A DNA stretch of 64,000 bases from Pirellulales bacterium (GTDB taxonomy: Bacteria; Planctomycetota; Planctomycetia; Pirellulales; PALSA-1355): contig JBGSKX010000006.1 of assembly GCA_041741015.1 (NCBI GenBank), positions 2,495 to 66,494 of the forward strand, written 5' to 3'. Shown here one piece after another: positions 3,228 to 48,286 of this stretch. Made by a program: the position numbers and the translations under genes. How positions within the stretch are numbered: position 1 is the stretch's first letter; each line of letters begins with the position of its first letter. The notes below the pieces were generated by a model. That model had not been told where the DNA came from. It made no database searches and saw nothing but the letters and a program-made list of their open reading frames with translations.

Positions 3228-3257
3228 GAATCCATTTGTTTCGTTAGTTGCTGATCC

Positions 3258-3297
3258 AGCTGGCCTTGCCGCATCCTGTGGGAAGGCCAGCTTTTTT
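3258..3297 (+). terminator. Rho-independent terminator candidate
   Basis: Stem agctggcctt / aaggccagct (10 bp) followed by a T-run, about 30 nt after the stop at 3227. Confidence 0.6.
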
Positions 3298-21848: not shown

Positions 21849-22092
21849 GCGCGTCGCGCTCAATCGCACGGGATTGTACCGGTAGCTCTCATGATAACAG
21901 GAACCCGGGCGGCAACCAGCATGGGAGATTGCCGGTTTAGCGTCCAGCACCCGCAAAGAATTGGTCGCGGCCGACGAATGACCTGCAGCCGACTGAGCCG
22001 TCTGGTACGCCGCGGCAGGGCAGCGCTATAATGGCCCACGCGGCAAGCCCACGGGCAGCTGTCCACCAATCATTTGCGGAGAACACTCTGGC

Positions 22093-27358: not shown

Positions 27359-27411
27359 CGCAACTCGAGAGGGGGCATCATGCACAAAGCAGCGTGGGGC
27401 AGAATAGACCA

Positions 27412-27552
27412 AGGCCCGCGGTAGCGACCTCGGATGAGAGACCCATCGCACAAAGAGATGACTGCTTATGGCTGCTGACTTTCGTCCCTGACCAGGTTCG
27501 CAGGTCCCCATTGCGAGGGCCTCTCATCGGAGGCCGCCAGGCCGCGAGGAGG
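27412..27552 (-). ncRNA. ffs: Signal recognition particle RNA (small bacterial 4.5S type); ends approximate
   Basis: The minus strand reads CCUGGUCAGGGACGAAAGUCAGCAGCCAUAAGCAG. This matches the remembered E. coli 4.5S domain IV, CCAGGUCAGGUCCGGAAGGAAGCAGCCAAGGCAG, with a GNRA tetraloop and the AGCAGCC loop. The flanks pair into one long hairpin (CCUCCGAUGAGAG with CUCUCAUCCGAGG, CGCA with UGCG, CUGC with GCAG). It lies directly upstream of dnaX on the same strand, as in the Bacillus scr-dnaX-yaaK-recR arrangement. Confidence 0.78.
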
Positions 27553-30791: not shown

Positions 30792-31742
30792 GTGCGTCCC
30801 TTAAACGAGCTTGCTCACGAATTGTGCGAACAACTGGTAGCCGAGGCTGCCGACTTGCGCGTTTCCGTCGCACAGTCGGGTAACGGCGTGCGACTGATCG
30901 ATTGCGGAATCACTGCCTCTGGCGGTTTGGAAGCTGGCCGACGACTGGCCGAGATCTGCCTTTCGGGACTGGGGCAAGTCAGCTACGTGCCGTCGCAATT
31001 GGCGGAAACCCCGGGCTTGGCGGTGCAAGTTGTCACGGATCGTCCACTCGAAGCCTGCATGGCTTCGCAGTATGCCGGCTGGCAGATCGCCGAAGGCAAA
31101 TACTTCGCGATGGGATCGGGTCCGATGCGGTCGCTTGCTCGCAAGGAGCCGCTGTTCGCCAAGATTGGATATCAGGAGTCTGCGAAAGTAGCCATCGGAG
31201 TGCTGGAAACCAGCAAGGTTCCGCCAGACGAGTTGTGCCACAAACTGGCGGAGGAGTGCGGCGTCTCGCCTGAAAAGCTCACATTGCTCATGGCGTCCAC
31301 TGCGAGCCTGGCCGGCATGGTGCAGATCGTCGCCCGAAGCGTCGAAACAGCGATGCACAAGCTGTTTGAACTGGGCTTCGATTTAGCACGCGTCGAGAGC
31401 GGCTTCGGAACGGCGCCGCTGCCGCCGGCATCTGCAGATAACCTGGTGGCGATTGGACGTACCAACGACGCAATTCTGTACGGCGGTGAGGTGACGCTGT
31501 TCGTGCGCGGCGATGACGCCAGCCTCGAGCAACTCGGCCCCAAGGTTCCCAGCGGTGCGTCGTCCGATCATGGGCAGCCGTTTGCCGCGATCTTCGCACG
31601 TGCGGGGCAAGATTTTTACAAGATCGATCCGCACCTGTTCAGTCCTGCACGGATCGTGCTTTCGAACCTGGACACGGGCCGCACGTTCGCGTTCGGTCGG
31701 ACGTTGCCACGGGTGATTCACGAATCTTTCGATCTGCGGTAG
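30792..31742 (+). CDS. mch: Methenyltetrahydromethanopterin cyclohydrolase (Mch)
   Basis: About 316 aa with LIDCGI, GGLEAGRRLAEICLSGLG, SQYAGWQI, FAMGSGPMRSLA, GRTNDAILYGG and DFYKIDPHLFSPA, as remembered for the methylotroph and planctomycete Mch. Confidence 0.85.
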   Translation: MRPLNELAHELCEQLVAEAADLRVSVAQSGNGVRLIDCGITASGGLEAGRRLAEICLSGLGQVSYVPSQLAETPGLAVQVVTDRPLEACMASQYAGWQIAEGKYFAMGSGPMRSLARKEPLFAKIGYQESAKVAIGVLETSKVPPDELCHKLAEECGVSPEKLTLLMASTASLAGMVQIVARSVETAMHKLFELGFDLARVESGFGTAPLPPASADNLVAIGRTNDAILYGGEVTLFVRGDDASLEQLGPKVPSGASSDHGQPFAAIFARAGQDFYKIDPHLFSPARIVLSNLDTGRTFAFGRTLPRVIHESFDLR

Positions 31743-32661: not shown

Positions 32662-34353
32662 ATGTCCCGCGTGACGAACTCGACGGCGATTGCTGCTGTG
32701 CCCGCGCCCGTGAACGTAGCGCGGCGGTTGGCGGCAATGGCCGAGCGTATGCCGGGCGCGGTTGCCGTTGCCGTGCCGCGAAAAAGTCGGGGCCGGTTCG
32801 CGTACGACAGGTGCACGTTCGCGGAACTCGAAGCGGAGACAAATCGTATCGCGAGTGGCCTGCGCACATTGGGCGTCACGCCCGGGACGCGGATCGCGCT
32901 GCTCGTCAAGCCAAGCCGCGAATTCATCGCGCTGGTGTTCGGACTGTTCAAGGCCGGTGCGGTGATCATCCTGATTGATCCGGGCATGGGGCGGCGCAAT
33001 CTGCTGCGCTGTCTGGCCGATGCCGAGCCGGCAGGTTTCATTGCAATTCCTGCTGTGCATGGGCTGCGCCGCCTATTGCGATCGCGTTTCCCCAAGGCGC
33101 GGTTCAATGTCACGGTCGGGCGGCGGCTGTTCTGGGACGGAATTACTTACGCCGAGCTGCTCGAGCTGGGTTCATCCAAGCCGACATGCCAGGAGACCTC
33201 GGCCGACGATCCCGCCGCGATCATTTTCACCACAGGCAGTACGGGACCTCCCAAAGGCGTACTGTACCGCCATGGGAACTTCGACCGCCAGGTGAGAGAG
33301 ATCTCCGAGTTTTACGGAATTCAGCCGGGAGAGATCGATGTACCCGGCTTTCCACTTTTCGGGCTGTTTAATGCGGCGATGGGTGTGACGACGGTCATTC
33401 CCATCATGGACGCCTCGCGTCCCGCGCGCATCGATCCCAAGAAGTTCGTGGCCGTCGTGCAGGACTGGCAAGCCACGCAGTCGTTTGGCTCGCCGGCGAT
33501 TTGGAACCGCGTCGGCCAATACTGCGAAAAGCACAACGTGCGGCTGCCGCTGCAGCGTGTGATATCGGCCGGAGCGCCGGTGCCACCCCACGTGCTGGCG
33601 CGTATGAAAGCGGCGATCGCTTCGGACGGCGACGTGCATACCCCCTACGGAGCCACCGAGGCATTACCCGTCGCGTCGCTCTCGGCCAGCGAGATCTTGT
33701 CCGAAACGCGCCATCATTGGGCTCAGGGTGGGGGGACCTGCGTCGGCGGCCACTTTCCGGGCATCCAGTGGAAGATCATCGCGATCACGGATGAGCCGAT
33801 CGAATCGATCGACGACGTGCGGGAGCTTCCCCAAGGACAGATTGGCGAAATCATCGTCACGGGGTCGGTGGTCACACACGAGTATGTGACTCGCCGCGAA
33901 TCGAACGCCCTGGCGAAGATTTCCGACGGCCCACGCGTCTGGCACCGCATGGGGGACGTTGGCTATCTGGACGAGCGTGGCCGCTTTTGGTTCTGTGGCC
34001 GGAAAGCTCACCGGGTAGAAACCACGCACGGACCGATGTACTCGATTCCCTGCGAAGCGATCTTCAATCAGCATCCGGTAGTATACCGCTCAGCGCTCGT
34101 GGGCGTCGGGCAGACGGGTAAGCAGCGGCCGGTGATCATTGTCGAGCCATGGCCGGGAATGCGGCCACGCTGGCGAAAGGCGCGTGAAGCACTCATTGTG
34201 GAACTCGCACAGCTCGGTAAAGCGAATCCACTGACCGTTTCCATAGAGCAGTTTCTGATACACCCGGCGATGCCGGTGGACATTCGGCATAACGCCAAGA
34301 TATTTCGCGAGAAGTTGGCTCCCTGGGCGGCTCGCAAACTGGGATGGCACTAA
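32662..34353 (+). CDS. AMP-dependent synthetase/ligase (fatty-acyl-AMP ligase / OleC-like beta-lactone synthetase family)
   Basis: Adenylate-forming core motifs FTTGSTGPPKG, YGATE and GDVGYLDERGRFWFCGRK. It is followed, with a 10-nt overlap, by an OleD-like reductase. Confidence 0.8.
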   Translation: MSRVTNSTAIAAVPAPVNVARRLAAMAERMPGAVAVAVPRKSRGRFAYDRCTFAELEAETNRIASGLRTLGVTPGTRIALLVKPSREFIALVFGLFKAGAVIILIDPGMGRRNLLRCLADAEPAGFIAIPAVHGLRRLLRSRFPKARFNVTVGRRLFWDGITYAELLELGSSKPTCQETSADDPAAIIFTTGSTGPPKGVLYRHGNFDRQVREISEFYGIQPGEIDVPGFPLFGLFNAAMGVTTVIPIMDASRPARIDPKKFVAVVQDWQATQSFGSPAIWNRVGQYCEKHNVRLPLQRVISAGAPVPPHVLARMKAAIASDGDVHTPYGATEALPVASLSASEILSETRHHWAQGGGTCVGGHFPGIQWKIIAITDEPIESIDDVRELPQGQIGEIIVTGSVVTHEYVTRRESNALAKISDGPRVWHRMGDVGYLDERGRFWFCGRKAHRVETTHGPMYSIPCEAIFNQHPVVYRSALVGVGQTGKQRPVIIVEPWPGMRPRWRKAREALIVELAQLGKANPLTVSIEQFLIHPAMPVDIRHNAKIFREKLAPWAARKLGWH

Positions 34354-35351
34354 TGCGCGTGCTAGTCACTGGCGGCGGAGGTTTTCTAGGCCGCGCGATC
34401 ATCGAGCAACTGCTCGCTCGGGGCGACGAGGTTCGCAGCCTCGCGCGGGGCAATTACCCTGAGTTGGAAGCACGCGGCGTCGAATGTCTGCGCGGCGACA
34501 TTCGCGATGCAGCCAGAGTGTCCAGTGCGTGCGCCGACTGCGAGCTGGTGTTTCATACGGCCGCCGTGGCGGGCATCTGGGGACCTTGGGAGCACTTCTA
34601 CGGGATCAATGTGCTGGGGACACGGAACGTTATTGCGGCTTGTCGCGAGCGCAAAGTGCCGAAGCTCGTTTATACGAGCAGCCCCAGCGTGACATTCGGC
34701 GGTAACCCGCAGGAGAACGTTGACGAGAGCGTGGGCTACGCGAGCCGCTGGCTGTGCCATTACGCCCAGACCAAGGCGCTGGGCGAGCAGGAAGCCCTGG
34801 CTGCGAACACGCGGGCACTGGCGGTCTGCGCCTTGCGACCGCATTTGATTTGGGGGCCGGGCGACCAGCACTTGATTCCGCGGTTGATCGAGCGAGCTCG
34901 CAGCGGGCAGTTGCGCCGCGTCGGAAACGGCAAGAATCTGATCGACATGGTGTATGTGGACAACGCAGCCGCAGCTCATGTGCAGGCGGCCGAGGCCCTG
35001 TTGCCGGGTTCGCCGGTAGCGGGCCGGGCCTACTTCATCAGCCAAGGAGAGCCGGTCAACTGCTGGCAGTGGATCGACGAACTGCTCGGGCTCTCGGGTT
35101 TGCCGCCCGTCGAGCGGAGCATCTCGCTGTCGGCGGCGTGGCAGGTTGGTGCGGCCATGGAATGGGCGTACCGGTTGCTGCGTCTGACGGGTGAGCCGCG
35201 AATGACTCGATTTCTGGCGGGCCAGTTAGGGATGTCGCATTACTTCGACATCACGGCGGCGCGGCGAGATTTTGGCTATCGGCCTGGGGTCGGCAAAGAG
35301 GCTGGAATGGAGCGTTTACGCGTCACTCTGCGCGCGGATGAGTCGCATTAG
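34344..35351 (+). CDS. NAD(P)-dependent 3-beta-hydroxysteroid dehydrogenase/epimerase family reductase (OleD-like)
   Basis: VLVTGGGGFLG, the YAQTK YxxxK motif, ALRPHLIWGPGDQHLIPRL and AYFISQGEP. Confidence 0.8.
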   Translation: MALMRVLVTGGGGFLGRAIIEQLLARGDEVRSLARGNYPELEARGVECLRGDIRDAARVSSACADCELVFHTAAVAGIWGPWEHFYGINVLGTRNVIAACRERKVPKLVYTSSPSVTFGGNPQENVDESVGYASRWLCHYAQTKALGEQEALAANTRALAVCALRPHLIWGPGDQHLIPRLIERARSGQLRRVGNGKNLIDMVYVDNAAAAHVQAAEALLPGSPVAGRAYFISQGEPVNCWQWIDELLGLSGLPPVERSISLSAAWQVGAAMEWAYRLLRLTGEPRMTRFLAGQLGMSHYFDITAARRDFGYRPGVGKEAGMERLRVTLRADESH

Positions 35352-35547
35352 ACAAGCTTTGCGATACCGAATTGAGCGCTTTGCAGAGCAAAGTCATTCG
35401 CGACCGCGCAGGGGGCGTTTCACGCGCCTGGCGAGGCCTTGCCAGTGGCACGGAAAGCCGCTAATTTCAAGGGTTTGAGCGAGGTGGTCGAGGCGTGCGT
35501 AAGATCATGGTGTCAGGACGTTTTTGGATCTACACGGAAGTCGCGCC

Positions 35548-36804
35548 ATGATTGCCAACCCAGCCACCCAGCGACCGGATCACGAGCGAATCGTGATTAC
35601 CGGAGTCGGCCTTGCCGCTCCGAACGGCAACTCGCTGAGCGAGTTTCGCGAGGCTCTGCTCAACGGTCGCAGCGGCGTTTCGGAGTACGAGATTCGCTAC
35701 GTCGGCAAGACCTTGGCCGGCGTCTGCAATTTCGACGAGCTTCGCTACCAGAAGAAGAAGGAACTGCGCCGCGGCACCCGGGCGGCCAGCGTCGGCATCT
35801 ACTGTGCGAACGAAGCCGTGAAGGATGCCGGGCTGGACTGGCCCAACGTCGACAAGTCGATGGTGGGCATCTACATCGGCGTGACCGAGCACGGCAACGT
35901 CGAGACAGAAAACGAAATTTATGAGCTGCGCGGCTTCGACTATGACACGAAGTTCTGGTCGCATCACCACAATCCGCGAACAGTTGCGAACAATCCCGCC
36001 GGCGAGATCTCGCTGAACATGGGAATCACGGGGCCGCACTACACGGTGGGCGCCGCCTGTGCGGCGGGTAACGCCGGTTTGATCCAGGGTGCGCAGATGC
36101 TGCGGCTGGGCGAGTGCGACGTCGCGATTGCCGGCGGTGTTTCCGAGAGCGTGCGAACGTTCGGCATTTTTGCCAGCTTCGCCAGCCAGGGTGCGCTGGC
36201 CACGCATGCCGATCCGGCCAAGGCCTCGCGCCCGTTCGACACCGAGCGGAACGGGATCGTGGTGGCCGAAGGGGGCTGCCTGTACATCCTCGAGCGGCTG
36301 AGCGACGCCAAGCGGCGCGGCGCGAAGATCTATGGCGAAGTGGCCGGCTACGCAATGAACAGCGACGCGAGCGACTTCGTGCTGCCGAACCCGGTGCGCC
36401 AGGCTGAGTGTGTGCAACTGGCATTGCGGCGGGCGCGCTTGACGCCCCAGCAGGTGGACATCGTGAGCACGCACGCGACGGGGACCTCGAGCGGAGACGT
36501 GCAGGAGTGCACGGCGCTGCGCAGCGTGTTCGCCGGTTCGGAATCGACCTGGTTCAATAACGCCAAGAGTTTCATTGGCCACGCGATGGGTGCCGCCGGT
36601 TCGCTGGAGTTGGGCGGAAACCTGCCGGCGTTTGCCGACGGCGTGTGCCATCCTACGATCAACGTTGACACGCTCGACCCCGAGTGTGCCCTGGACGGAC
36701 TGGTGGTCAACGAGGCCCGCGAAAAGAATCGCGTGAACGTCATTCTGAACAATTCGTTCGGAATGCTCGGGATCAACTCGGTCGTCATCATTACCCGCAT
36801 CTAA
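35548..36804 (+). CDS. Beta-ketoacyl-ACP synthase (FabF/FabB-type KS)
   Basis: RIVITGVGL, active-site Cys in GAACAAG, and the His pair in STHATGT and FIGHAMGAAG. The ATG at 35548 is preferred over TTG 35524. Confidence 0.88.
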   Translation: MIANPATQRPDHERIVITGVGLAAPNGNSLSEFREALLNGRSGVSEYEIRYVGKTLAGVCNFDELRYQKKKELRRGTRAASVGIYCANEAVKDAGLDWPNVDKSMVGIYIGVTEHGNVETENEIYELRGFDYDTKFWSHHHNPRTVANNPAGEISLNMGITGPHYTVGAACAAGNAGLIQGAQMLRLGECDVAIAGGVSESVRTFGIFASFASQGALATHADPAKASRPFDTERNGIVVAEGGCLYILERLSDAKRRGAKIYGEVAGYAMNSDASDFVLPNPVRQAECVQLALRRARLTPQQVDIVSTHATGTSSGDVQECTALRSVFAGSESTWFNNAKSFIGHAMGAAGSLELGGNLPAFADGVCHPTINVDTLDPECALDGLVVNEAREKNRVNVILNNSFGMLGINSVVIITRI

Positions 36805-36834
36805 CGAGCCTGCTTCACTGGAGAACCTGAGGGC

Positions 36835-37095
36835 ATGGGTCCTGCTGAAATCAAAGAGACGATTCTCGACATCCTGGAAGGCATCGCGCCGGACGAAGAT
36901 CTGAGCGGCCTGAAGGATGACGTGCCGCTGCGCGAGCAACTGGAGCTCGACAGCATGGACTTTCTGGACATCGTGATGGAGCTCCGCAAGCGTTACCGGG
37001 TGCAGATTCCCGAGGACGACTACCTGGAGCTGGCCACGATGAACAGCACGGTGAACTACCTGACGCCGCTGATGAAGGACCTGGAGAAGGTCTGA
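36835..37095 (+). CDS. Acyl carrier protein
   Basis: 86 aa with the phosphopantetheine attachment motif LELDSMDFLDIV. Confidence 0.88.
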   Translation: MGPAEIKETILDILEGIAPDEDLSGLKDDVPLREQLELDSMDFLDIVMELRKRYRVQIPEDDYLELATMNSTVNYLTPLMKDLEKV

Positions 37096-37212
37096 TCCTC
37101 CCTCGGACGAACTGATCCCAATGGGCCAAAAGAACCCGTTGGGCGAATCCGCGAATCGCACCAAATCCCACCTGGCAACATCCGCGACGCCAGTCGCGAG
37201 CTAAGAGCGTTC

Positions 37213-38637
37213 ATGTCCAGCTACGACACGATCATCATTGGCGCGGGATTGTCAGGACTGGCGGCCGGCATTCGGCTCGCGCACTACGATCGGCGGGTGT
37301 GCATCCTCGAACGGCACACCACGATCGGCGGACTGAACTCGTTCTATCGCCTGGGCGGGCGAAACTACGACGTCGGCCTCCACGCCGTGACGAATTACAC
37401 CCCCAAAGGCGCTCGCAAAGGCCCGCTCGCCCGGCTGTTACGCCAGTTGCGGTTCCGCTGGGAAGACTTCGCCCTGGTGCCGCAGATCGGCTCACAGATC
37501 GCATTTCCGGGCATTTCGCTCAATTTCACAAACGACTTCGAATTGTTCCGCAGCGAAGTGCACCAGGCGTTTCCCGCCGAACGGGCGAATTTCGACAAGT
37601 TGTCCGCGGCGATTATGGACTACGACGACCTGGATGGCGCGCTTGCCTCGCAGTCGGCCCGGAGTATCGTGACGCAGTGGATCCGCGACCCGCTGCTGAT
37701 CGACATGTTGTTCTGCCCGCTGCAGTACTACGGCGGCGCCCGCGAGCACGACATGGACTTCGGGCAATTCTCGATCATGTTCCGCAGCATCTTTCAGGAA
37801 GGTTTCGCGCGACCCTGGTCGGGCATCCGCCAGATTCTTAAGAACCTGGTACGTCGGTTTAAAGAACTGGGGGGCGAGCTGCGTTTGCGAGCCGGCGTGC
37901 AACGGATGGAAGTCGACGACGATCGTGTGAGCCGGATTGTGCTGGACGACGGCAGTGAGATCACGGCCGATCGTGTGCTTTCCTCGGCGGGGCTCGTGGA
38001 AACTCTGGCGATGGTCGATCAGCGGCCCGCGCGGACTCCGCAGCCGGGTCAGCTGTCGTTCGTCGAGGGGATCGCCGTGCTGAATGAGCAGCCGCAGACA
38101 CTCGGTTGCGATCGCTCGGTCATCTTCTTCAACGATTCGGACAAGTTCCGCTGGCAGAAGCCGGATGAACTGGTGGATGTGACGAGCGGGGTGGTCTGCC
38201 TGCCGAACAATTTCAAGTTCGATCGCCCGCTGGAAGACGCCATGGTTCGCGTGACAGCGCTGGCAAACTACGACCGGTGGCGCTCGCTGCCGCCGGTCGA
38301 CTATCAGGCTGCCAAACAGGCGACTTACGAACGGATTATGGAGATAGTCGGGCGATTCATTCCGGAGTACCGGGCGCGCACCGTGGCCAGCGACATGTTC
38401 ACGCCGATGACTGTCGAACGGTTCACCGGTCACGCCAATGGCGCCATTTACGGTTCGCCCGAGAAACGCAAGCACGGGACGACGCATCTGAAGAACTTAT
38501 TCCTGTGTGGCACCGACCAGGGGTTCGTGGGCATCATCGGCGCGATGTTCAGCGGCATCATGATCGCCAATCGGCACGTGCTGGGCACTGTTTCCACGGA
38601 CCTCGAACAAGTCGCGGCCGTCGGCGTCGACTTCTAA
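37213..38637 (+). CDS. FAD-dependent oxidoreductase of the phytoene desaturase (CrtI) family
   Basis: N-terminal dinucleotide fold DTIIIGAGLSGLAAGIRLA ... ILERHTTIGG. The length (474 aa) and overall layout are CrtI-like. Confidence 0.75.
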   Translation: MSSYDTIIIGAGLSGLAAGIRLAHYDRRVCILERHTTIGGLNSFYRLGGRNYDVGLHAVTNYTPKGARKGPLARLLRQLRFRWEDFALVPQIGSQIAFPGISLNFTNDFELFRSEVHQAFPAERANFDKLSAAIMDYDDLDGALASQSARSIVTQWIRDPLLIDMLFCPLQYYGGAREHDMDFGQFSIMFRSIFQEGFARPWSGIRQILKNLVRRFKELGGELRLRAGVQRMEVDDDRVSRIVLDDGSEITADRVLSSAGLVETLAMVDQRPARTPQPGQLSFVEGIAVLNEQPQTLGCDRSVIFFNDSDKFRWQKPDELVDVTSGVVCLPNNFKFDRPLEDAMVRVTALANYDRWRSLPPVDYQAAKQATYERIMEIVGRFIPEYRARTVASDMFTPMTVERFTGHANGAIYGSPEKRKHGTTHLKNLFLCGTDQGFVGIIGAMFSGIMIANRHVLGTVSTDLEQVAAVGVDF

Positions 38638-38667
38638 GAGAAAGGCGCGCTCCGCCGCGATTGCTGT

Positions 38668-40113
38668 ATGGCCCGAGACTTTCTAAAAGGCGCGCGAGAC
38701 AGCTACGACTGCATCGTCATCGGCAGCGGTCTGGCCGGAATGACGGCCGCCAATACGCTGGCTCGTGCCGGGCAGTCGGTACTGCTGCTCGAGCAGCATT
38801 ACAAGCTGGGGGGCATGGCCACCTGGTTCAAACGCCCCGGCGGGCACATTTTCGACATCTCGCTGCATGGTTTTCCGGTCGGGATGATCAAGAGCTGCCG
38901 CCGCTATTGGTCGAAGGAGATTGCCGATTCGATCGTGCAGCTCAGGAACATCCGCTTCGACAATCCGATGTTCTCGCTGACGACGACGTTCAATCGCGAG
39001 GATTTCACGCGGCTGCTGATCGAGAAATTCCAGGTACCCGAGGCCGACGTGGTGGCGTTTTTCGACGCCGCACGCGGCATGAACTTCTACGACGATCAGT
39101 CGACCACCGTCGGCCAACTGTTCCAGAAGTTTTTTCCCGGTCGCGAAGACGTGATCCGGCTGCTGATGGAGCCGATTACGTACGCCAACGGTTCGACGCT
39201 GGAGGATCCTGCGATCAGCTATGGCATCGTGTTTTCGAACTTCATGTCCAAGGGCGTATTCACGTTCGAGGGCGGAACCGATCGGCTGATCGATCTGATG
39301 CACAAGGAGCTTGTGGCCAGCGGCGTCGACGTGCGAATTCGTTGCGACGTGGAAAAAATCCTGGTCCGCGACGGCCGCGTATGTGGAGTGCGGGTCAACG
39401 GTCGTGACATCGCCGCCCGCTCGGTCGTCTCGAATGCGAATCTGAAAAGCACGATCTTCCGCATGGTCGGCGAGGAGCATTTCGACCGCAAGTTCGTCGA
39501 CGACGCGCAGGCCGTGCGGCTCAATAATTCAAGTTGCCAGGTGTATATGGCGCTCAAGCCGGGAAGCGACCTGGATGAGAGCCTGGGCGACCTGCTGTTC
39601 AGTTCAACTGCGCCGTTATTTCGGACGGACGCATTGCTGTCGCGAGACATCACTAGCCGAACGTATTCTTTCTACTATCCCCGCACGCGGCCCGGCAGCG
39701 ATCGATCGCTGATTGTGTCGAGCACAAACGCTCGCTACGAGGACTGGGCGAAACTCTCGAAGGAAGAATACGAGGACAGCAAGCGAGACCTGGTTGAAAC
39801 AACGATCGATGCTCTCGCACGCTATATTCCCGACATTCGCGCGCGACTGGCGCATGCCGAGGCCTCCACGCCAATTACCTTCCGTCATTACACCCAGCAC
39901 TTAAATGGGGCCAGCTTCGGCACGAAGTTCGAGGGGCTCGCCGTGAGCAGGGCAATTCCAGAACAGGTCGGCGGCTTGTATCACGCGGGCAGTGTTGGAA
40001 TCATCATGTCTGGCTGGCTGGGCGCGATGAACTACGGTGTGATCGTGGCCAACGACGTCGATTCCTGGTTGCTGAAATCCGCAACGCGCCCGCCTCTCGC
40101 CGCCACCGCGTGA
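38668..40113 (+). CDS. FAD-dependent oxidoreductase of the phytoene desaturase (CrtI) family (second copy)
   Basis: [19 protein letters not shown] ... [10 protein letters not shown]. It is 481 aa and similar in architecture to the previous gene. Confidence 0.75.
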
Positions 40114-40572
40114 ATGAGATCCCCCATGAGCTTGCAAGAGATCGAACAAGCGATTCCGCATCGTCCGCCGTTCCTGCTGGTCGACGAAATCGTGGACCGC
40201 GGTGAGGACTGGATCATCTGCCGGAAGACGTTCCACGGGGACGAGTACTTTTACGCTGGCCACTATCCGGAGTTTCCAATCACGCCGGGCGTGTTACTGT
40301 GCGAAGCAGCGATGCAGGCCGGCGCGATTTTGCTCTCGCATCGCGAAACGCCACCGGAGGGTGGAATTCCAGTTGCGGCGGGTTTGAACAACGTGCGTTT
40401 CCGGCGGATGGTTCGGCCGGGCGACACCATCGAAATGGAAGTCAGGCTCACAAACCGCATCTCGAAAGCCTGGTTCCTATCGGCAAAAGTTTCCTGCGGC
40501 GGGCAGCTTGCCGTCCGCATGGACTTCATCTGCGCCGTGGCCCAGCCGGAAATGAATGGCAACGGCAACTAA
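40114..40572 (+). CDS. FabZ/FabA-like 3-hydroxyacyl-ACP dehydratase (hotdog fold)
   Basis: [14 protein letters not shown] and [20 protein letters not shown] (catalytic His and Glu context). The start abuts the previous stop (TGAATG). Confidence 0.85.
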
Positions 40573-40588
40573 CGGGACCCGGTGCCGA

Positions 40589-41404
40589 ATGGCCACTGAT
40601 TTTCTGCAACTGGCCGGCAAAACGATCCTCGTGTTCGGCTTGGCAAATCGCAAGAGCGTCGCCTGGCACGTGGGCCAGGTGCTGCGAGAGGCCGACGCAA
40701 ATGTGGTTTATGTCGTACGCAGCGAACAACGCCGCGACGGAGTGCGGAAGCTGCTTGGACCGGAGACGGACATTTACGTCTGCGACGTCGAGCATCAGGA
40801 CCAGATCGAGCGAATCGCCGCTGAAGTCTCTGCGCGGCATCCCAAGCTGCATGGCCTCGTGCATTCGATCGCGTTTGCCGACTACGGCGAAGGGCCGAGG
40901 CCGTTTCATGAAACGTCGCGGTCGGCATTCCTGCGCGCGGTGGATATTTCCTGTTTTTCACTGGTGGCGCTGGCCAACGCGTTTAAGCCCGCGCTGGATG
41001 TGAGTGCGTCGGTCGTAGCGATCTCGATCTCAACCACACGGATGGCGGCCGAGAACTACGGCTACATGGCGCCGGTGAAGGCTGCGCTCGATTCTTCGCT
41101 CGTGTTCCTAGCGAAGTCGTTTAGCCGGTTCTCCGAAGTACGGTTCAATGCCGTCTCGCCGGGCTTGCTCAAAACTTCGGCCTCGGCCGGCATTCCCGGC
41201 TACATCGACAGCTACCTGTACGCCGAGCAGGTAACTCTTCGCCGCCGCGCGCTTCAAACCGCGGAAGTGGCGAGCACCGTCGCATTTTTGTTGAGCCCGC
41301 GCTCCAGCGGCATCAATGCTCAGCAATTGGTAATCGACGCCGGCATGAGCGTGAATTATTTCGACGAGCGGATTGTGCAGCGGTGCGTGGACTTGGCCGA
41401 GTGA
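40589..41404 (+). CDS. FabI-like enoyl-ACP reductase (SDR)
   Basis: [34 protein letters not shown] (the Y..K of FabI) and [12 protein letters not shown] align with my memory of E. coli FabI. ATG at 40589. Confidence 0.8.
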
Positions 41405-41587
41405 TCTCTTCTGAGAACCGCTCTGATTTGTTTGCGTGCGAATCTCACCGGCAGCGCCGAGCTGCTTGACCGGAAAGTTGGTCGCTTGCGATTCCAAATG
41501 TGGTCTCGCGGCAACCAGTCCGATCGGGTGGCGAGCAGCGATCAAGGCGCAATCCCTTACAGCCACTGGCTTTCGGTCCGGATATTG

Positions 41588-41616
41588 TTGACACTCGACA
41601 GAGAAGCTCTTAGTTT
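41588..41616 (+). promoter_or_regulatory. Sigma-70-type promoter candidate for kaiCB
   Basis: TTGACA (41588-41593), a 17-nt spacer, then TAGTTT (41611-41616). It sits in a local AT-rich island about 130 nt upstream of the kaiC start region. Confidence 0.35.
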
Positions 41617-41742
41617 AAAATTTCGCAGAATCGGTCGCGGCTATCCTTCCGGTGTCTTTTTTGCACAGGGACGCCGCCGCGATTGATACGACGATGCGGG
41701 CGTACAAGGCGGGTCTCCCCGCTGTCTAGTCTGTTCGGAGAC

Positions 41743-43491
41743 GTGACATTGAGTGTTTCCACCGCAAAATCTGCTGCGCCGCAATTGGCGAAGGCCCCGA
41801 CCGGCATCGATGGCTTCGACCAGATCACCGGGGGCGGGCTGCCGCAGGGGCGCCCCTCGCTGGTGTGCGGCAGCGCCGGCTGCGGCAAAACACTGTTCGG
41901 TCTCGAGTTCATCATTCATGGAGCGACCCAGTTTAATGAGCCCGGCGTGATCATGACGTTCGAGGAGACCGAGCGTGATCTGACCGAAAACGTGCGTTCG
42001 CTGGGCCACGACCTGGAGCAGCTCTCGGCCGATGGAAAAATCATGATCGATCACGTGCGCGTCGAGCGGAGCGAGATCGAAGAGGCGGGCGAATACAACC
42101 TCGACGGCTTGTTCCTCAGGCTCGGACTGGCGATCGATGCTATCTGCGCAAAGCGCGTGATGCTCGACACGCTCGAAGCGCTGTTCTCGGGATTCACCAA
42201 CGAAGCCATCTTGCGCGCCGAGCTGCGGCGACTGTTTTTGTGGCTTAAAGATCGCGAAGTCACGACGGTGATCACCGGCGAGCGTGGCGACGGCGCACTC
42301 ACGCGGCAGGGTCTGGAAGAGTACGTCTCCGACTGCGTGGTCCTGCTCGATCATCGAGTGCTGGACCAGGTGTCGACGCGTCGATTGCGGATTGTGAAGT
42401 ATCGCGGCAGCGCGCATGGCACGAATGAGTATCCGTTCCTGATCGATGAAGACGGTATTTCCGTGCTCCCGATCACATCGTTGAGCCTGAAGCACCAGGC
42501 CTCTGAAGAGCGAATCTCGACTGGCATCGCACGGCTCGACGAGATGCTGGGCGGCGGATTCTATCGGGGCACGAGCATTCTCATCTCGGGAACTGCCGGG
42601 ACCGGCAAGAGCAGCTTGGCGGCGTATATGGTAGAGGCGGCGTGTCGGCGCGGCGAACGCTGCTTGTACTTTGCCTTCGAGGAGGCTCCCGCACAGATCG
42701 TGCGAAACATGCGGAGCATTGGCCTGAACCTGGGGCAGTGGACTGACAACGGCTTGCTGCAGTTTCATGCCCAGCGCCCTTCGCTGTACGGACTCGAGAT
42801 GCACCTGGCCGTGATGCACAAAGCCATCGAGGATGCCAAGCCGTCGGTGGTTGTGATCGATCCGATCAGCAACCTCTCGAGCGGCGGCACACTGGGCGAA
42901 GCGGGCGCGATGCTGGTGCGGATCATCGACTTTCTCAAGGTCAAAGGCATTACCACGCTGCTTACGAATCTGACTTCGGACGCCTCGGCCCGCGAGTCGA
43001 CCGACGTCGGCGTTTCCTCGCTGGTCGATTCCTGGATTCTGCTGCGCGACATCGAACTTGGCGGCGAGCGCAACCGCGGGTTGTACATCATCAAATCGCG
43101 CGGCACCGCCCACTCCAACCAGATTCGCGAGTTCCTCTTGACCGACAAGGGAATCGATTTGCTGGATGTTTACGTCGGCCCCGAAGGCGTGCTCACAGGC
43201 TCGATGCGATTGGCCCAGGAAGCCCGCGAGCGGGCGGTCGAAGTTGCCAAAAGCCAGGAGGACGACCGCCGCGCTCGGATTCTGGATCGGAAGCGGAAGG
43301 CGATTGCGGCGCAGATCGCGGCACTGGAAGCGGAACTGTCGGCCGACGAGACCGAGGCCGAGGAGGACGCCGAGAAACTGTCGCAGCGGATTGCTCGGAT
43401 GGCGCAGGATCGACACGAAATGGCAGTTAGCCGCAAAGCAGATGGAAATGGCATATCAAACAAGGGGATGAAAGTCGGAGACCAGGGATGA
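41743..43491 (+). CDS. kaiC: Circadian-clock-type ATPase KaiC (double RecA domain) with a C-terminal coiled-coil-like extension
   Basis: The N-terminal CI domain has [22 protein letters not shown] and TFEETERD. The CII domain has [18 protein letters not shown] and FAFEEAPAQ. The phosphosite region is [16 protein letters not shown]. The start is uncertain: in-frame GTG 41743, TTG 41749 (GGAGA 9 nt upstream), or the track TTG 41683. Confidence 0.9.
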
Positions 43492-43820
43492 GCGAATCGC
43501 ACATACAAGTCAATGATGGCGCAAAAGCCGACGAGGGCTTTTGGGAACTGAGGCTCTATGTGGCCGGACAGACTGGCAAGAGCATGATCGCGATGCAGAA
43601 TCTGCAGCGCATCTGCGACGAGCATCTGGCTGGGCAGTACCGAATCGAAGTGGTCGATCTGCTCAAACAGCCGCAACTGGCCAAGGGGGATCAGATCGTC
43701 GCGATTCCCACCTTGGTGCGCTCGCTGCCCAACCCGGTCCGCAAGATCATTGGCGATCTTTCCAATACCGAAAAGACGCTGGTCGGTTTGCAATTGCGTC
43801 CCGCCGTCGGCTCGAGCTAA
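43488..43820 (+). CDS. kaiB: KaiB
   Basis: [27 protein letters not shown] ... [40 protein letters not shown]. The ATG overlaps the kaiC stop (ATGA). Confidence 0.92.
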
Positions 43821-43834
43821 GGACTTCGCTCCGA

Positions 43835-45505
43835 ATGACCGATGTCACACGAACGATGGATGCACCCGCCGCGGAACTGCAACGCGAGAACGCGTATTTG
43901 CGGCAGCGCGTCGCCGAGCTTGAAGAGACACTCGAAGTCCTGACCGCGATCCGCACTGGACAGGTGGATGCGTTGATCGTGGACGACGATACTGATCGCC
44001 CGGAGGTGCGCACCCTGGAATCTGCGGACAGGATCCATCTGCGCCTGGCGCAGCAGGCCGCCAACGCCGGGACCTGGGAATGGGATCTGGCGAACCGGTA
44101 CGTGCGCGGCTCGGAAAGCTTCTGGTCGCTGTTGGGAATCACGCCCGCGCCCGCGCAATTGCCCGAAGAATATTGGCCAGACCTGATGGCGACCGAAGAC
44201 CAAGAGCGGATCCAGACGCGGCTGCAACAGGCGCTCAAAGCTGAAGATGAGTTTTATGAGGAACTGCGGATCACGCGCGTCGATAGTGAGCCGCGCTGGC
44301 TGGCGGTGCGGGGACGTATCGTACGCGGGTTTGAAGGCAGGGCAGCGCGCGTGATTGGGATCAGCCTGGACATTACCGAGCGAAAAGCGATTGAAGACGC
44401 TCTGCGGCTGGCCGATCGGCGCAAGGATGAGTTTCTGGCCATGCTGGCACACGAACTGCGCAATCCGTTGGCTGCCATCGGCAACGCGTTTCGGTTGTTT
44501 CGGGGTGTCAGCCTGAGCGAATCGGAGCGAGACTGGACCGGAGAAGTTCTGGAGCGGCAGATTCTGCAGCTTCAAAGCCTGATTGACGATCTGCTCGACA
44601 TCTCGCGGATTACCCAAGGCAAGGTCAAGCTACGGCGGAGAACGCTGGAAATCAATGAGCTGTTGGGACGCGTGACGGAAACCTTGCGGCCGCGGTTTGC
44701 CGCCGCGCAGCAGAATTTGTCCGTCGAGCTCTCCGGGGAGTCGCTGTGGGTTCATGCCGATGAATCGCGGCTCGAGCAAGTGTTCGTCAATTTGCTGACG
44801 AATGCGGCCAAATACACCAAAATGGGCGGCCGTATCTGGCTCAGCGGCCGCCGCGAAGGTAATGAGGTGGTCATCATCGTCAAGGACACCGGCATCGGCA
44901 TTGTGCCGGAAATGCTGCCCCGCGTGTTTGAACTGTTTGCCCAGGCCGAGCGCGGGCTGGAGCGAACAGAAGGAGGCCTCGGGATCGGCCTTTCACTGGT
45001 TCGCCGAATTGTGGAACTGCACGAGGGGAGTGTTACCGCGTACAGTGAAGGTTCGGGGCAGGGGAGCGAGTTCACGGTTCGCTTGCCCGCGTGTGAATCG
45101 CAAAAGAAGTCCGTTCCACTGGAGGCTCCCGTTATCGAAACCTCGGCAAATCCACGTCGCGTATTGATCGTCGATGACAATCGCGACGCTGCTCAGACCA
45201 TGGCCCTGCTGATCAAGCTTTCGGGTCACGAGACGGCCACCGCGCACGACGGACCGGAAGCGCTGGCCATGCTGGACGTAGTGAAACCGGAGGTGGCGCT
45301 GCTCGATATCGGCTTGCCCAAGATGGACGGCTATGAGCTGGCGCGACGAATTCGTGAGCGGGTGAGCGACGTCTATCTGATCGCGGTGTCCGGATATGGG
45401 CAGCCGGAGGATAAAGCGCGTTCCAGCGAAGCAGGCTTCGACGAGCACTTTGTCAAGCCGGTCGATTCGACGCAGTTGATTGCGAGCTTGACGCGCCGGC
45501 GCTAG
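43835..45505 (+). CDS. Hybrid sensor histidine kinase/response regulator (coiled coil, PAS, HisKA, HATPase, REC)
   Basis: From the ATG at 43835. PAS-like GTWEWDL ... ITERK and the H-box FLAMLAHELRNPL. The N and G boxes are NLLTNAAKYT, DTGIGI and GLGIGLSLV. The REC domain has VLIVDDNRD ... ALLDIGLPKMDG ... FVKP. The track start at 43541 overlaps kaiB and is probably an over-extension. Confidence 0.88.
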   Translation: MTDVTRTMDAPAAELQRENAYLRQRVAELEETLEVLTAIRTGQVDALIVDDDTDRPEVRTLESADRIHLRLAQQAANAGTWEWDLANRYVRGSESFWSLLGITPAPAQLPEEYWPDLMATEDQERIQTRLQQALKAEDEFYEELRITRVDSEPRWLAVRGRIVRGFEGRAARVIGISLDITERKAIEDALRLADRRKDEFLAMLAHELRNPLAAIGNAFRLFRGVSLSESERDWTGEVLERQILQLQSLIDDLLDISRITQGKVKLRRRTLEINELLGRVTETLRPRFAAAQQNLSVELSGESLWVHADESRLEQVFVNLLTNAAKYTKMGGRIWLSGRREGNEVVIIVKDTGIGIVPEMLPRVFELFAQAERGLERTEGGLGIGLSLVRRIVELHEGSVTAYSEGSGQGSEFTVRLPACESQKKSVPLEAPVIETSANPRRVLIVDDNRDAAQTMALLIKLSGHETATAHDGPEALAMLDVVKPEVALLDIGLPKMDGYELARRIRERVSDVYLIAVSGYGQPEDKARSSEAGFDEHFVKPVDSTQLIASLTRRR

Positions 45506-45510
45506 GCCGA

Positions 45511-45543
45511 GAAAGCGGCGAATCGCGAGTGGGCAACCGCTTT
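45511..45543. terminator. Hairpin between convergent genes (possible bidirectional terminator)
   Basis: gaaagcgg / ccgctttc 8-bp stem between the kinase stop (45505) and the topA stop (45557). There is no strong U-run. Confidence 0.3.
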
Positions 45544-45556
45544 CAGAAGGTCGCGT

Positions 45557-48286
45557 CTAGAAGGGGGCGTCGTCCGAGGCCGCCGACTTCTTCTTGACGG
45601 TGGTTTTCTTCTTCGTGCCCTTCTTGGCCGGTGCCTTTTTGGCGGGAGTTGCGCCATTCTCGGCCGCAGCCTTTTTCTTCGCGGGTGCCTTCTTGGCGGT
45701 CTTTCGCTTGGCCGATTTCTTCGAAGGGCCTAGCGCCGCCCGGGCAGCCAGTAATTCCAGCGCCTGTTCGCGGGTGAGTGCATCAGCCGTGAGCCCCTTG
45801 GGCAGCGAGGCGTTTGTTTCACCGTCGTTCAGGTATAGCCCATAGCGGCCCTCAAGCAGCTGGATCTTCTGCTTCGTCACCGGTGACTCGTCAAACACCT
45901 TAAGCGGCTCGCGCGGGGCGCCGAAGCCCCGCCGAACGGCCTTCGGCTGGGCGAGCAATTCGAGGGCTTGTTCAAGCGTCACGTCGATCGGTGAAAGGTC
46001 TGCCGGCAAGCTGCGAGTCTCGGAACCTGCCTTGATGTAGGGTCCGAAGCGGCCGTTCTGGGCCACGATCGGTTCGCCGTTGCCGGGGAAGATGCCGAGT
46101 TCGCGTGGCAGCGATAACAGCCTAAGCGCGACATCGACCGTGACATCTTCCGGCTTCATGCCCTTGAGCAGCGAGGCGTTTTTCGGCTTCTCTTCATCCT
46201 CCGGCGTTCCCCGCTGAATGTATGGCCCGAAGCGGCCTACTTTCAGGAAGATCGGCTTGCCGGACTCGGGGTCGTGACCCAGTGGCTCTTCGGCTTGGGC
46301 GGCCTGGCTGAGAATCTCGAGCGCGGCTTGGACCGAGAGTTCGTCGGGCGCCATCTCTTCGCGCAGGCTGCCGCGACGCTCGCCCTGTTCGATGAACGGT
46401 CCATAGCGCCCGACGCGAACGAAAATCGGTTCTTCGCCTTCCGGTTGACCGATCAAGATGCGGCCGATGTCGCGGGCATCGACCTCGTCCACTTTATTGG
46501 CCAGTAGTTTTTTGAGCCCCGGCTTGCCGTTGCCGAAATAGAACTGCCGCAAGTAGTCGACGTGCCCCGATTCGCCGCGGCTGATCGCATCGAGATCGTC
46601 TTCCATTTGGGCCGTGAACTTGTAGTCGACTAGTTCCGGCAGGTGGGCCGTTAGCAACTGCGCGACGGAGAATGCCACCCAGGTCGGCACCAGGGCGTTC
46701 CCTTTCTTGAAGACGTACTCGCGCGCGAGAATCGTATCGATGATCGAGGCGTACGTGCTCGGGCGGCCGATCCCCATTTCTTCCAGCGCCCGGGTGAGCG
46801 AGGCTTCGCTGTAGCGCGCCGGAGGCTGGGTGGTGTGGCTTTTGGGTTCAAGTTCGCTGAGGTCGAGCGGCTCGCCCACCACGACGCTCGGCAGCACGGT
46901 GTCGCGTTCGGCGAGGTCGGCCTGCGGATCGTCGCTGCCTTCGACGTAGGCCCGCAGATATCCGGCGAAATCGATGGTTTTTCCGCCGACTTGGAAGATC
47001 GCGCCGTCGCCTTCGATGGTAATCGTGATGCGCCGGCCGTGCGCGTCGGCCATCTGGCTGGCGACGGTCCGCTTCCAGATCAGATCGTACAGCCGGAATT
47101 GATCGGCGTTTAGTTCGTTACGCAGCGTTTCGGGGAGCGCGAAAGGATGGCCCGCGGGGCGGATGGCTTCGTGAGCTTCCTGGGCGTTCTTGACCTTGGT
47201 TTGATAGGTCCGCGGCGCGTCGGGCAGATACTCGCTGCCGTACTGCGAACGCACCAGATCTCGCGCCGCATCGACGGCCACCTTGGCCAGGTTCGTCGAG
47301 TCGGTTCGCATGTAAGTAATGTGGCCGTTCTCGTAGAGGCTCTGGGCAGCCTGCATGGTGCGTTTGGCGGTGAAGCCAAGTTTGCGGTTGGCCTCCTGTT
47401 GCAGCGTGCTGGTGGTGAACGGCGGATATGGTTTCGTAGTGAAAGGCTTGTCGTCGAGCGCCGTGACGGTGAAGCTGGCTCGGCCCAGACGCTCGAGGAG
47501 CACAGCCGCGCCGCCTTCATCGAGCAGTAGCAGCGACTCGTCCTTGATCTTGCCGGTGGCGGCGTCGAAATCTTTGCCGCTGGGAATCTTACGGCCGTCG
47601 ACGGAGACGAGTTCCGCCTGGAACGACTGCTGATCGCGCTTGGAAAACTTGCCGAGCAAATCCCAGTAGGTCGCCGAAACGAAGGCCATTCGCTGGCGTT
47701 CGCGTTCGACGATCAGCCGCACGGCAACGCTCTGCACGCGACCGGCGGAGAGTTTAGGCCGCACCTTGCGCCACAAGAGTGGCGAGACTTCATAGCCATA
47801 CAGCCGGTCGATGATCCGCCGGGCTTCTTGAGCTTTGACCAGGTCTTCATCGATCGATCGCGTGTGTTCGAGCGCGTCGCTGATCGCTTCTTTCGTGATT
47901 TCGTGGAAGACGAGCCGGTGGACGGGGACCTTCGGCTTCAAGAGTTCGTTGAGATGCCAACTAATGGCTTCTCCTTCGCGGTCTTCGTCCGTCGCCAGGT
48001 AGAGGTCCTTCGCCTCTTTCAGCAGGTCCTTTAACTTGCGAACCTGCTGGGTCTTGCCCGGCGGAATGATATAGACCGGGTCGAAGTCGCTGTTGACGTT
48101 CACGCCCAGGTGGGCCCAATCCTCTCCTTTATATTGAGCCGGAATCTGTTTTGCCCCCTGGGGCAAGTCACGCACGTGGCCAATGCTGGCCTCGACCGTG
48201 AAGTCGCTGCCCAGAAACTTGCTGATCGTGCGTGCCTTGGCCGGCGATTCGACGATCACCAGTGATTTGCCGTTTTTCTTGGCCAT
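45557..48286 (-). CDS. topA: DNA topoisomerase I with Cys-free C-terminal repeats and a Lys-rich tail
   Basis: Toprim N-terminus LVIVESPAKARTI and an active-site region around YITYMRTDS. Four G(R)(F/Y)GP(Y/F)I repeats carry no cysteines. The tail is KKSAKRKTAKKAPAKKKAA..KKGTKKKTTVKKK. Confidence 0.93.
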   Translation of the reverse strand: MAKKNGKSLVIVESPAKARTISKFLGSDFTVEASIGHVRDLPQGAKQIPAQYKGEDWAHLGVNVNSDFDPVYIIPPGKTQQVRKLKDLLKEAKDLYLATDEDREGEAISWHLNELLKPKVPVHRLVFHEITKEAISDALEHTRSIDEDLVKAQEARRIIDRLYGYEVSPLLWRKVRPKLSAGRVQSVAVRLIVERERQRMAFVSATYWDLLGKFSKRDQQSFQAELVSVDGRKIPSGKDFDAATGKIKDESLLLLDEGGAAVLLERLGRASFTVTALDDKPFTTKPYPPFTTSTLQQEANRKLGFTAKRTMQAAQSLYENGHITYMRTDSTNLAKVAVDAARDLVRSQYGSEYLPDAPRTYQTKVKNAQEAHEAIRPAGHPFALPETLRNELNADQFRLYDLIWKRTVASQMADAHGRRITITIEGDGAIFQVGGKTIDFAGYLRAYVEGSDDPQADLAERDTVLPSVVVGEPLDLSELEPKSHTTQPPARYSEASLTRALEEMGIGRPSTYASIIDTILAREYVFKKGNALVPTWVAFSVAQLLTAHLPELVDYKFTAQMEDDLDAISRGESGHVDYLRQFYFGNGKPGLKKLLANKVDEVDARDIGRILIGQPEGEEPIFVRVGRYGPFIEQGERRGSLREEMAPDELSVQAALEILSQAAQAEEPLGHDPESGKPIFLKVGRFGPYIQRGTPEDEEKPKNASLLKGMKPEDVTVDVALRLLSLPRELGIFPGNGEPIVAQNGRFGPYIKAGSETRSLPADLSPIDVTLEQALELLAQPKAVRRGFGAPREPLKVFDESPVTKQKIQLLEGRYGLYLNDGETNASLPKGLTADALTREQALELLAARAALGPSKKSAKRKTAKKAPAKKKAAAENGATPAKKAPAKKGTKKKTTVKKKSAASDDAPF

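Follow-up and report, generated by a model that had tools for sequence, protein, structure and literature searches.

A KaiC-RS-type kaiC-kaiB-hybrid kinase operon in a Pirellulales bacterium and its presence or absence in related genomes

The kai operon and its products

This report deals with three genes, kaiC, kaiB and a gene for a hybrid sensor histidine kinase, which lie together in a stretch of 64,000 nucleotides from a Pirellulales bacterium (GenBank assembly GCA_041741015.1, contig JBGSKX010000006.1, positions 2,495 to 66,494 of the forward strand); the whole of this stretch is called the window hereafter, and positions are counted from its first letter. The three genes form one tight operon on the plus strand with hardly any intergenic space (Table 1): the kaiC reading frame closes with TGA at 43489-43491, the kaiC stop and the kaiB start share four nucleotides (ATGA), and 14 nucleotides separate kaiB from the kinase gene. 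This overlap and this short gap fit a single transcript. A first-pass annotation, made from the nucleotide sequence before our analysis, had proposed a kaiC-kaiB-hybrid kinase module with tightly spaced genes. Open reading frames, junctions and Pfam domains agree that the module is real, and the spacing is as tight as was claimed, with the kaiB ATG overlapping the kaiC stop and the 14-nucleotide gap preceding the kinase. For kaiC, the Logan contig has a gene call with this TTG start, and an identical KaiC of 580 amino acids is found in NCBI; GGAG lies 8 nucleotides 5' of this TTG, and the earliest possible start of an open reading frame in the kaiC frame is at 41683. The kinase also has the same gene call on the Logan contig and an identical protein of 556 amino acids in NCBI. 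Position 41588, from which the first-pass annotation let the locus begin, had to be given up as the start of a coding sequence: it is out of the kaiC frame and corresponds to the TTGACA of a promoter-like element. An antisense open reading frame of 591 amino acids (41641-43416) was dismissed as an artefact of high G+C (guanine plus cytosine) content opposite a gene with E = 0 homology, and Rfam and tRNA scans detected no RNA gene in the kai locus.

From where is the operon transcribed? In an intergenic alignment of five related genomes, whose mean column identity is 48%, the pattern GTTGACAC-N16-TAG..T is invariant with fixed spacing, and this is independent of whether kaiC or a gene for a receiver (REC) domain alone follows. 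Such invariance within poorly conserved intergenic DNA is the best evidence for regarding the element at 41588-41622 as the operon promoter, which it probably is. A generic promoter and terminator scan of 41300-45700 gave nothing above shuffle expectation; it missed this element because the -10 part is non-consensus.

Table 1. Features of the kai locus in the window, and the loci of related genomes compared with it
Feature	Coordinates	Strand	Description
Promoter-like element TTGACAC-N16-TAGTTT(AAAAT)	41588-41622	+	Upstream of kaiC; five-genome comparison
Segment of 3.46 kb absent from sister genomes	41673-45133	+	kaiC leader, kaiC, kaiB, kinase residues 1 to about 433
kaiC	41749-43491	+	580 amino acids; KaiC2 / KaiC-RS type; TTG start
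CI Walker A, GSAGCGKT	41869-41892	+	G..G.GK invariant in 82 sequences
CI catalytic Glu pair, FEETE	41959-41973	+	EE in 82/82
CII Walker A, GTAGTGKS	42589-42612	+	G..G.GK invariant in 82 sequences
CII catalytic Glu pair, FEEAP	42676-42690	+	EE in 82/82
Ser378	42880-42882	+	Equivalent to KaiC-RS Glu369 and S. elongatus Arg385; aligns with E of KaiC-RS AFTESGD
Ser423-Ser424 phosphosites	43015-43020	+	Equivalent to KaiC-RS S413/S414; aligned to GLSSL of 8DBA
C-terminal helix, residues 484-564	43198-43440	+	Homologous to KaiC-RS coiled coil; AlphaFold2 and tail-only statistics
Tail-end motif, residues 554-565	43408-43443	+	Family consensus DRxxMAxSRxAD; conserved across phyla
Last 16 residues of KaiC	43441-43488	+	Predicted disordered; pLDDT below 50 for residues 564-580; variable in relatives
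kaiB	43488-43820	+	110 amino acids; ATG 43488, TAA 43818-43820
Hybrid sensor histidine kinase	43835-45505	+	556 amino acids; ATG 43835
N-terminal helical segment and AIRtGqVDALIV motif, kinase residues 12-49	43868-43981	+	20-locus conservation
Phospho-accepting His206 (HELRNPL)	44450-44452	+	H-box conserved in alignment of Kai-linked kinases
Canonical REC domain	45161-45490	+	Response_reg 1e-23; DD447-448, Asp491 (45305-45307), Lys541
Window			Reference; kaiC, kaiB and full kinase behind promoter-like element
L084	10782-11360 of L084		Sister (TopA 97.6%, ketosynthase 99.5% amino-acid identity); promoter-like element and REC gene of 114 amino acids
L090	1035-1624 of L090		Groups with L084; REC only (129 amino acids), junction as in L084
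L086	9739-10485 of L086		Outgroup to window and L084 (TopA 90.5% amino-acid identity); REC only, different spacer
L088	1-3371 of L088		Most distant (SDR nucleotide identity 75-78% versus 82-89%); SDR and kai module

KaiC contains two Pfam KaiC ATPase domains (PF06745, E 4e-110). It scores 747 bits with the general KaiC model of NCBIfam (NF006799, cutoff 408) and stays below the cutoff of the model for the cyanobacterial KaiC equivalog (TIGR02655, 366 against 546). Its best match among solved KaiC proteins is KaiC of Rhodobacter sphaeroides (PDB 8DBA), hereafter KaiC-RS, with 690 bits; residues 34-583 of the query are aligned to 4-553 of the chain with two single-residue gaps, both in the core, and with no gap in the tail, and the overall identity of 58% divides into 62% for the core and 34% for the tail. 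The next class of solved KaiC reaches at most 376 bits, and its alignment ends at the end of CII. Foldseek searches with the predicted KaiC structure brought the dodecameric 8FWI, 8FWJ and 8DBA to the top with 523-551 aligned columns, tail included; cyanobacterial KaiC was aligned over about 465 columns at 38-39% identity.

Conservation of single residues was read from a family alignment of 82 sequences and from an alignment of 58 sequences, here called A1. Both Walker A loops, both catalytic Glu pairs and the Ser-Ser site, to which the first-pass annotation had pointed, are confirmed, and each is fully or almost fully conserved among the 82 family members; the first Ser of the site is kept in 81 and the second in all 82. 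Two serines at this site are the published mark of KaiC2, where KaiC1 and KaiC3 have a Ser/Thr pair. At the position of Ser378, a basic residue (Lys) occurs in only one of the 58 sequences of A1, and in the 82-sequence alignment the commonest residues include neither Lys nor Arg. A basic residue at the position equivalent to Arg385 has been proposed to damp the catalytic Glu in slow KaiCs (preprint 10.64898/2026.04.01.715469). The non-basic Ser378 fits an active autokinase, and such a non-inhibitory residue may be taken as a supporting hint of KaiA-independent autophosphorylation. In its sequence, KaiC has all the features that mark the long-tailed KaiC2 / KaiC-RS clade.

The thioredoxin-like domain of KaiB is recognized by Pfam PF07689 (97 bits, cutoff 27; E 5e-28), and its best match among solved structures is KaiB-RS from the KaiBC-RS complex (8FWJ_M, 2e-29). 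We compared the locus with 80 relatives, which are the best-scoring of more than 585 relatives in the genome collection, share 59-68% identity, and represent a dozen phyla or more (Acidobacteriota, Verrucomicrobiota, Planctomycetota, Bacteroidota, Myxococcota, Nitrospirota, Chloroflexota and others). In 71 of these 80 loci kaiB lies directly 3' of kaiC. Forty of the 80, including L004, L012, L013, L018 and L021, have a second, tandem kaiB roughly 400-600 nucleotides 3' of kaiC, which is more divergent (37-57% identical), while the window has one kaiB only; no mention of a second tandem kaiB was found in the parts of the Kai literature covered. As to KaiA, a Pfam scan found none among the predicted proteins of the window, the interval of 2.1-4.8 kb included, and tblastn with an S. 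elongatus KaiA query, a weak test, gave a best E of 1.6, which is noise. The earlier statement that there is no kaiA is right as far as the window goes and is to be limited to it.

The kinase is composed of PAS_3 (residues 93-176), HisKA (197-262), HATPase_c (309-419) and Response_reg (443-552) domains, and its receiver also has Ser at the conserved Thr/Ser position. No KaiB match was found in it by Pfam at E <= 0.01, and the NCBIfam model NF006800 covers the kinase core only (140 bits against a cutoff of 342). The kinase is therefore not SasA-like, and Pfam and NCBIfam bear out the domain composition without a SasA-type KaiB-like domain that the first-pass annotation had described. Nor is it CikA-like, because Pfam found no GAF match and the receiver is a canonical one, not a pseudo-receiver devoid of the phospho-accepting Asp. 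Of the 63 loci that have at least 3.5 kb of downstream sequence, 24 carry a homologous kinase gene after kaiB in the same orientation, and 18 of these 24 match through REC. Twenty loci of several phyla encode, 3' of kaiB, kinases that have a pattern L..R..L.EAEE.L.AIR.GEVDA.VV....V.TL..A in common. This N-terminal segment precedes the PAS domain, and the PAS domains themselves are poorly conserved among Kai-linked kinases (8-38% identical). The window also encodes an orphan response regulator, HTH_17 followed by a receiver (16731-17303, plus strand), 25 kb from the kai operon.

The C-terminal tail of KaiC

The first-pass annotation had given KaiC a heptad-like tail of about 95 residues and likened it to the Rhodobacter coiled coil. 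The extension is real, but the 95 residues include the A-loop region, and the extension proper beyond the 519-residue chains of cyanobacterial KaiC in PDB amounts to about 60 amino acids; the published figure for the long-tailed clade is about 50 (PMC10076222). AlphaFold2, run for the monomer with the 58-sequence alignment, predicts one continuous helix of 81 residues with a block-mean pLDDT (predicted local distance difference test) of 73-92. At 1.5 Å per residue this helix would be about 120 Å long, and the coiled coil of KaiC-RS spans about 115 Å (PMC10076222).

It might be asked whether the tail is just a charged, low-complexity or disordered appendage whose likeness to the Rhodobacter coiled coil is compositional. 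The tail is indeed rich in A, E, R and K, and its heptad periodicity in a single register is not significant when the window sequence is taken alone. However, when the tail alone was aligned to the KaiC-RS tail by the Smith-Waterman method, the score was 91 against 40.9 ± 6.7 for composition-preserving shuffles (z = 7.5), and 0 of 2000 shuffles reached the observed score. A tail profile built from the window and its 80 relatives matches the KaiC-RS tail at 28 bits, whereas the best of 1000 shuffles gave 6.8 bits. The helix is aligned gap-free across the 82 sequences, AlphaFold2 predicts it with confidence, and Arg562 in the tail-end motif is invariant in 58 sequences. We thus give hardly any credence to a merely compositional likeness. 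The full-length alignment to 8DBA and the Foldseek matches point in the same direction as these results, and the claim of a Rhodobacter-type coiled-coil tail is well supported. Disorder or lack of conservation of the tail had been named beforehand as grounds for abandoning that claim; what we found is a predicted helix over residues 484-564, and a tail of 76-117 amino acids in all the 80 relatives. It is to be noted that taking the 80 best-scoring relatives favours long-tailed proteins, so that this count shows the breadth of the tail and not its universality.

The heptad-like character of the tail fared less well. With the best a/d register, p was 0.18 when the tail of the window was tested by itself and 0.025, a modest signal, when the profile of the family was used, and Fourier analysis of tail hydrophobicity at a period of 3.5 was not significant, for which reason a heptad repeat was dropped as independent evidence. 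In KaiC-RS, the unphosphorylated register packs via the Cβ of Ala and Arg only, and the phosphomimetic register via Leu and Ile (PMC10076222). Two packing registers would be expected to leave two overlapping, weak seams, so that weak periodicity is no contradiction. The evidence for a coiled coil in the window KaiC is, then, homology to the solved coiled coil of KaiC-RS, and by the same homology the window KaiC would form a tail-to-tail dodecamer, in which the tail-end motif may contact CII in the facing hexamer.

Presence and absence at one syntenic site

In sister genomes, almost the whole module is missing as one segment (Table 1). A blastn comparison with L084 is colinear up to 41400 and again from 45134, with synteny on both sides, and between the two blocks L084 has only about 200 nucleotides, which hold the promoter-like element, kinase-linker sequence of about ten codons, in frame, and the REC gene, whose product is 95.6% identical to kinase residues 443-556. 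When the short spacers of L084 and L086 were searched for remnants of kaiC, kaiB and the kinase core, only linker and REC were left. The G+C content of the segment, 0.606, equals that of its flanks. In L088, the module stands behind the same promoter-like element, with 81% amino-acid identity for kaiC, 87% for kaiB and 76% for the N-terminus of the kinase.

How has this distribution arisen? The most economical reading of these alignments would be an ancestral module at this site and two or more deletions, each of which spared the promoter and a stand-alone REC. It is also conceivable that the module was lost once and then re-gained by homologous replacement, or that a REC-only state at this site is older than the module; the many stand-alone REC relatives, which share 63-89% identity, leave room for the latter. 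We rejected as less likely that the module was gained by joining, in frame, a REC gene already present at the site, because the more distant L088 has the module at the same site, and because the identity of REC to Kai-linked kinases of other phyla tracks that of the kinase core. The latter relation indicates that REC is an integral part of the kinase and not a captured gene. The loss in sister genomes makes the module dispensable and accessory, whether it acts as a timer or as a switch without timing.

The host was said to be a planctomycete, and this is supported by the adjacent topA, which lies downstream of the kai operon in convergent orientation: among the relatives of its product with 73-83% identity, every named close relative belongs to Pirellulales, Planctomycetia or Planctomycetota. 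On the other side, a lipid or aryl-polyene-like cluster (32662-41404) lies directly upstream of kaiC and is conserved in L084 and L086. It comprises genes for an acyl-AMP ligase, a 3β-hydroxysteroid dehydrogenase-like reductase, a ketosynthase, an acyl carrier protein, a short-chain dehydrogenase/reductase (SDR), two enzymes like FAD amine oxidases or desaturases, and a FabA/ApeI-like dehydratase. Further upstream there is a gene for methenyl-tetrahydromethanopterin cyclohydrolase (30792-31742; Pfam MCH, E 5e-124), a gene of the tetrahydromethanopterin pathway that is typical of Planctomycetes among non-methylotrophs. The window also encodes sigma-54 and a radical SAM enzyme of the CofH/MqnC family, and the set of these three genes fits Planctomycetota.

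Some other features of the window may be mentioned. The longest dnaX open reading frame (25595-27511) shares its 5' end with a small bacterial RNA of the signal recognition particle (27430-27528, minus strand; RF00169, 64.7 bits), and from this overlap the true dnaX start must be further downstream. Two PEP-CTERM proteins are encoded at 2454-3227 and 3687-4544 on the plus strand, in the stretch of the window with the lowest G+C content (0.553, 2001-4000), and both genes were missed by a filter on G+C at third codon positions. An NrdR-like repressor of 235 amino acids (21246-21956, minus strand), which is longer than usual for NrdR, has two zinc-ribbon matches before its ATP-cone.

A putative hourglass and its known relatives

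What could such a module do in a planctomycete? We consider it probable, with moderate confidence, that we have here a KaiBC module of the KaiC2 / KaiC-RS type whose hybrid kinase is co-transcribed, and that it works as an hourglass like that of R. sphaeroides. KaiC hexamers would then pair tail to tail via their 81-residue helices into a dodecamer held by a 12-helix bundle, and the bundle would keep the A-loops exposed, which would allow rapid, KaiA-independent autophosphorylation of Ser423 and Ser424 at high ATP/ADP. KaiB would bind the CI ring after hydrolysis and speed dephosphorylation once ATP/ADP falls. The KaiBC pair would thus be a resettable hourglass that reports the time spent in an energy state, and not a free-running clock. 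Output is likely to go through the PAS-HisKA-HATPase-REC kinase, which probably binds KaiC, KaiB or both and might relay the Kai state as phosphotransfer via its own REC to partners. Direct evidence on such coupling in a related setting comes only from Pseudomonas (bioRxiv 10.1101/2022.01.26.477890), and by analogy with it the coupling may run through the N-terminal or PAS region of the kinase. The pseudo-receivers of CikA and KaiA dock on KaiB or KaiC, and coupling through REC is therefore possible too. If the host is a heterotroph, as we presume, the hourglass would be driven not by photosynthesis but by cycles of nutrients or oxygen or by indirect diel cycles. We infer the dodecamer, the kinetics, the sensing of ATP/ADP and the kinase coupling from the Rhodobacter system.

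Several points weigh against an hourglass. KaiB is under both of its NCBIfam equivalog cutoffs (NF006798, 99.2 against 110; TIGR02654, 93.7 against 145.3), the absence of KaiA holds for the 64-kb window only, and the hydrophobic heptad periodicity of the window tail alone is not significant. Close relatives lost the module, so its function is not essential. Since the host is presumably a non-phototroph, a day-night swing in ATP/ADP such as drives the Rhodobacter hourglass has no obvious source, and for other KaiBC or KaiC2B2 systems roles independent of a clock are assumed.

These points bring up another possibility, namely that the module is a switch for stress or nutrient state without any timing role, the phosphorylation state of KaiC being fed into the kinase, as proposed for the homologues of Legionella and Pseudomonas and for KaiC2B2 of Synechocystis. 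The literature holds several non-cyanobacterial KaiBC systems and Synechocystis KaiC2B2 to be clock-independent, and from Pseudomonas an effect of KaiC on stress resistance and a KaiC phosphorylation that changes with the age of the culture have been reported (bioRxiv 10.1101/2022.01.26.477890). The presumed heterotrophy of the host and the dispensability of the module in sister genomes would suit such a switch as well. However, its difference from an hourglass is mainly one of emphasis, i.e., whether the delay itself is used, as an ATP/ADP hourglass is a sensor of metabolic state too. In addition, the window KaiC is far nearer to KaiC-RS, whose hourglass was shown biochemically, than to other solved KaiC (690 bits versus at most 376), and every checked residue tied to the KaiC-RS mechanism is kept. 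We regard a switch without timing as possible but rather unlikely. A self-sustained circadian oscillator of the cyanobacterial KaiABC kind seems very improbable: the homology of KaiC and KaiB to the clock proteins is genuine, but the window has no KaiA, KaiC is below the TIGR02655 cutoff, the closest characterised system is unable to oscillate alone, and Ser-Ser sites together with an exposed-A-loop architecture give constitutive, fast phosphorylation.

The REC gene left behind in sister genomes deserves attention. In both putative deletions the promoter-like element and an intact REC gene were spared, which may mean that REC serves as a working node in a phosphorelay. It might be, and we put this forward as a speculation that we would ourselves call doubtful, that the Kai timer is a detachable input before a self-sufficient REC node; other kinases would feed this node within a wider phosphorelay, and KaiBC and its kinase would add to it an input of time elapsed in an energy state in a non-phototroph. 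If true, strains with the module and their REC-only sisters would be natural knock-outs for the role of a KaiBC hourglass outside photosynthetic bacteria. The series as such, with the whole module or only promoter and REC at one syntenic site, could guide tests of the output pathway.

How does the locus compare with systems already described? The first-pass annotation implied a new kind of timer, which is not the case, as the clade, the tail, the Ser-Ser sites, the kaiC-kaiB-PAS/histidine kinase operon and the planctomycete members have all been published. Pitsawong et al. (2023; PMC10076222) defined a clade of long-tailed KaiC, mostly of the kaiC2 subgroup and with two serine phosphosites, and found that the tail of KaiC-RS forms a 12-helix coiled-coil bundle that joins two hexamers and keeps the A-loop exposed, phosphorylation being KaiA-independent. 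Their supplementary tree holds planctomycete KaiCs, including those of Rhodopirellula maiorica and Paludisphaera borealis. The kaiC-B-PAS/histidine kinase operon was described in Rhodopseudomonas palustris and R. sphaeroides (Ma et al., 2016; PMC4794148). With the clade, the tail mechanism and the operon on record, the locus opens no new question by itself.

Cyanobacterial KaiABC is the more remote relative. It shares with the window homologous KaiC and KaiB, double RecA-like rings, EE pairs and a histidine kinase as output, whereas the window lacks KaiA and its KaiC, at 38-39% identity, has phosphosites that are Ser-Ser and not Ser-Thr and a C-terminus longer by about 60 residues. The window kinase differs from SasA by having no KaiB-like N-terminal domain, and from CikA by its canonical receiver in place of a pseudo-receiver. 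The KaiC-like proteins of Pseudomonas also adjoin a PAS-containing or hybrid kinase, and there KaiC binds the PAS domain of the kinase, but they belong to other KaiC groups, the described neighbours of the three groups do not include kaiB, and their role is in stress resistance (bioRxiv 10.1101/2022.01.26.477890). R. palustris has the three genes in the order of the window, with a single predicted promoter, and there is in vivo evidence that it has a kaiC-dependent proto-circadian phenotype (PMC4794148), whereas the window is known from its sequence.

The closest systems are two. KaiBC of R. sphaeroides (8DBA, 8FWI, 8FWJ) has, like the window, Ser-Ser sites, a homologous tail helix of the same length, no kaiA and the order kaiC-kaiB-PAS/histidine kinase. 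It comes from a purple phototroph and not from a Pirellulales planctomycete, its tail is 34% identical, and it has Glu369 where the window has Ser; its hourglass was shown biochemically, whereas for the window we infer the dodecamer and the response to ATP/ADP. The cultured planctomycete Caulifigura coniformis (CP036271.1) has an annotated KaiC of 591 amino acids that is 69% identical to that of the window, a kaiB overlapping kaiC by four nucleotides, and a PAS-HisKA-HATPase-REC kinase 12 nucleotides further on; its kinase differs in having 690 amino acids and two PAS regions, and the genomic neighbourhood is another one. The locus of the window is an added KaiC-RS-type KaiBC-kinase operon in a widespread and known family, not a new type of clock, and the breadth of long-tailed KaiC underlines the question of what role a KaiA-less hourglass has in non-phototrophs.

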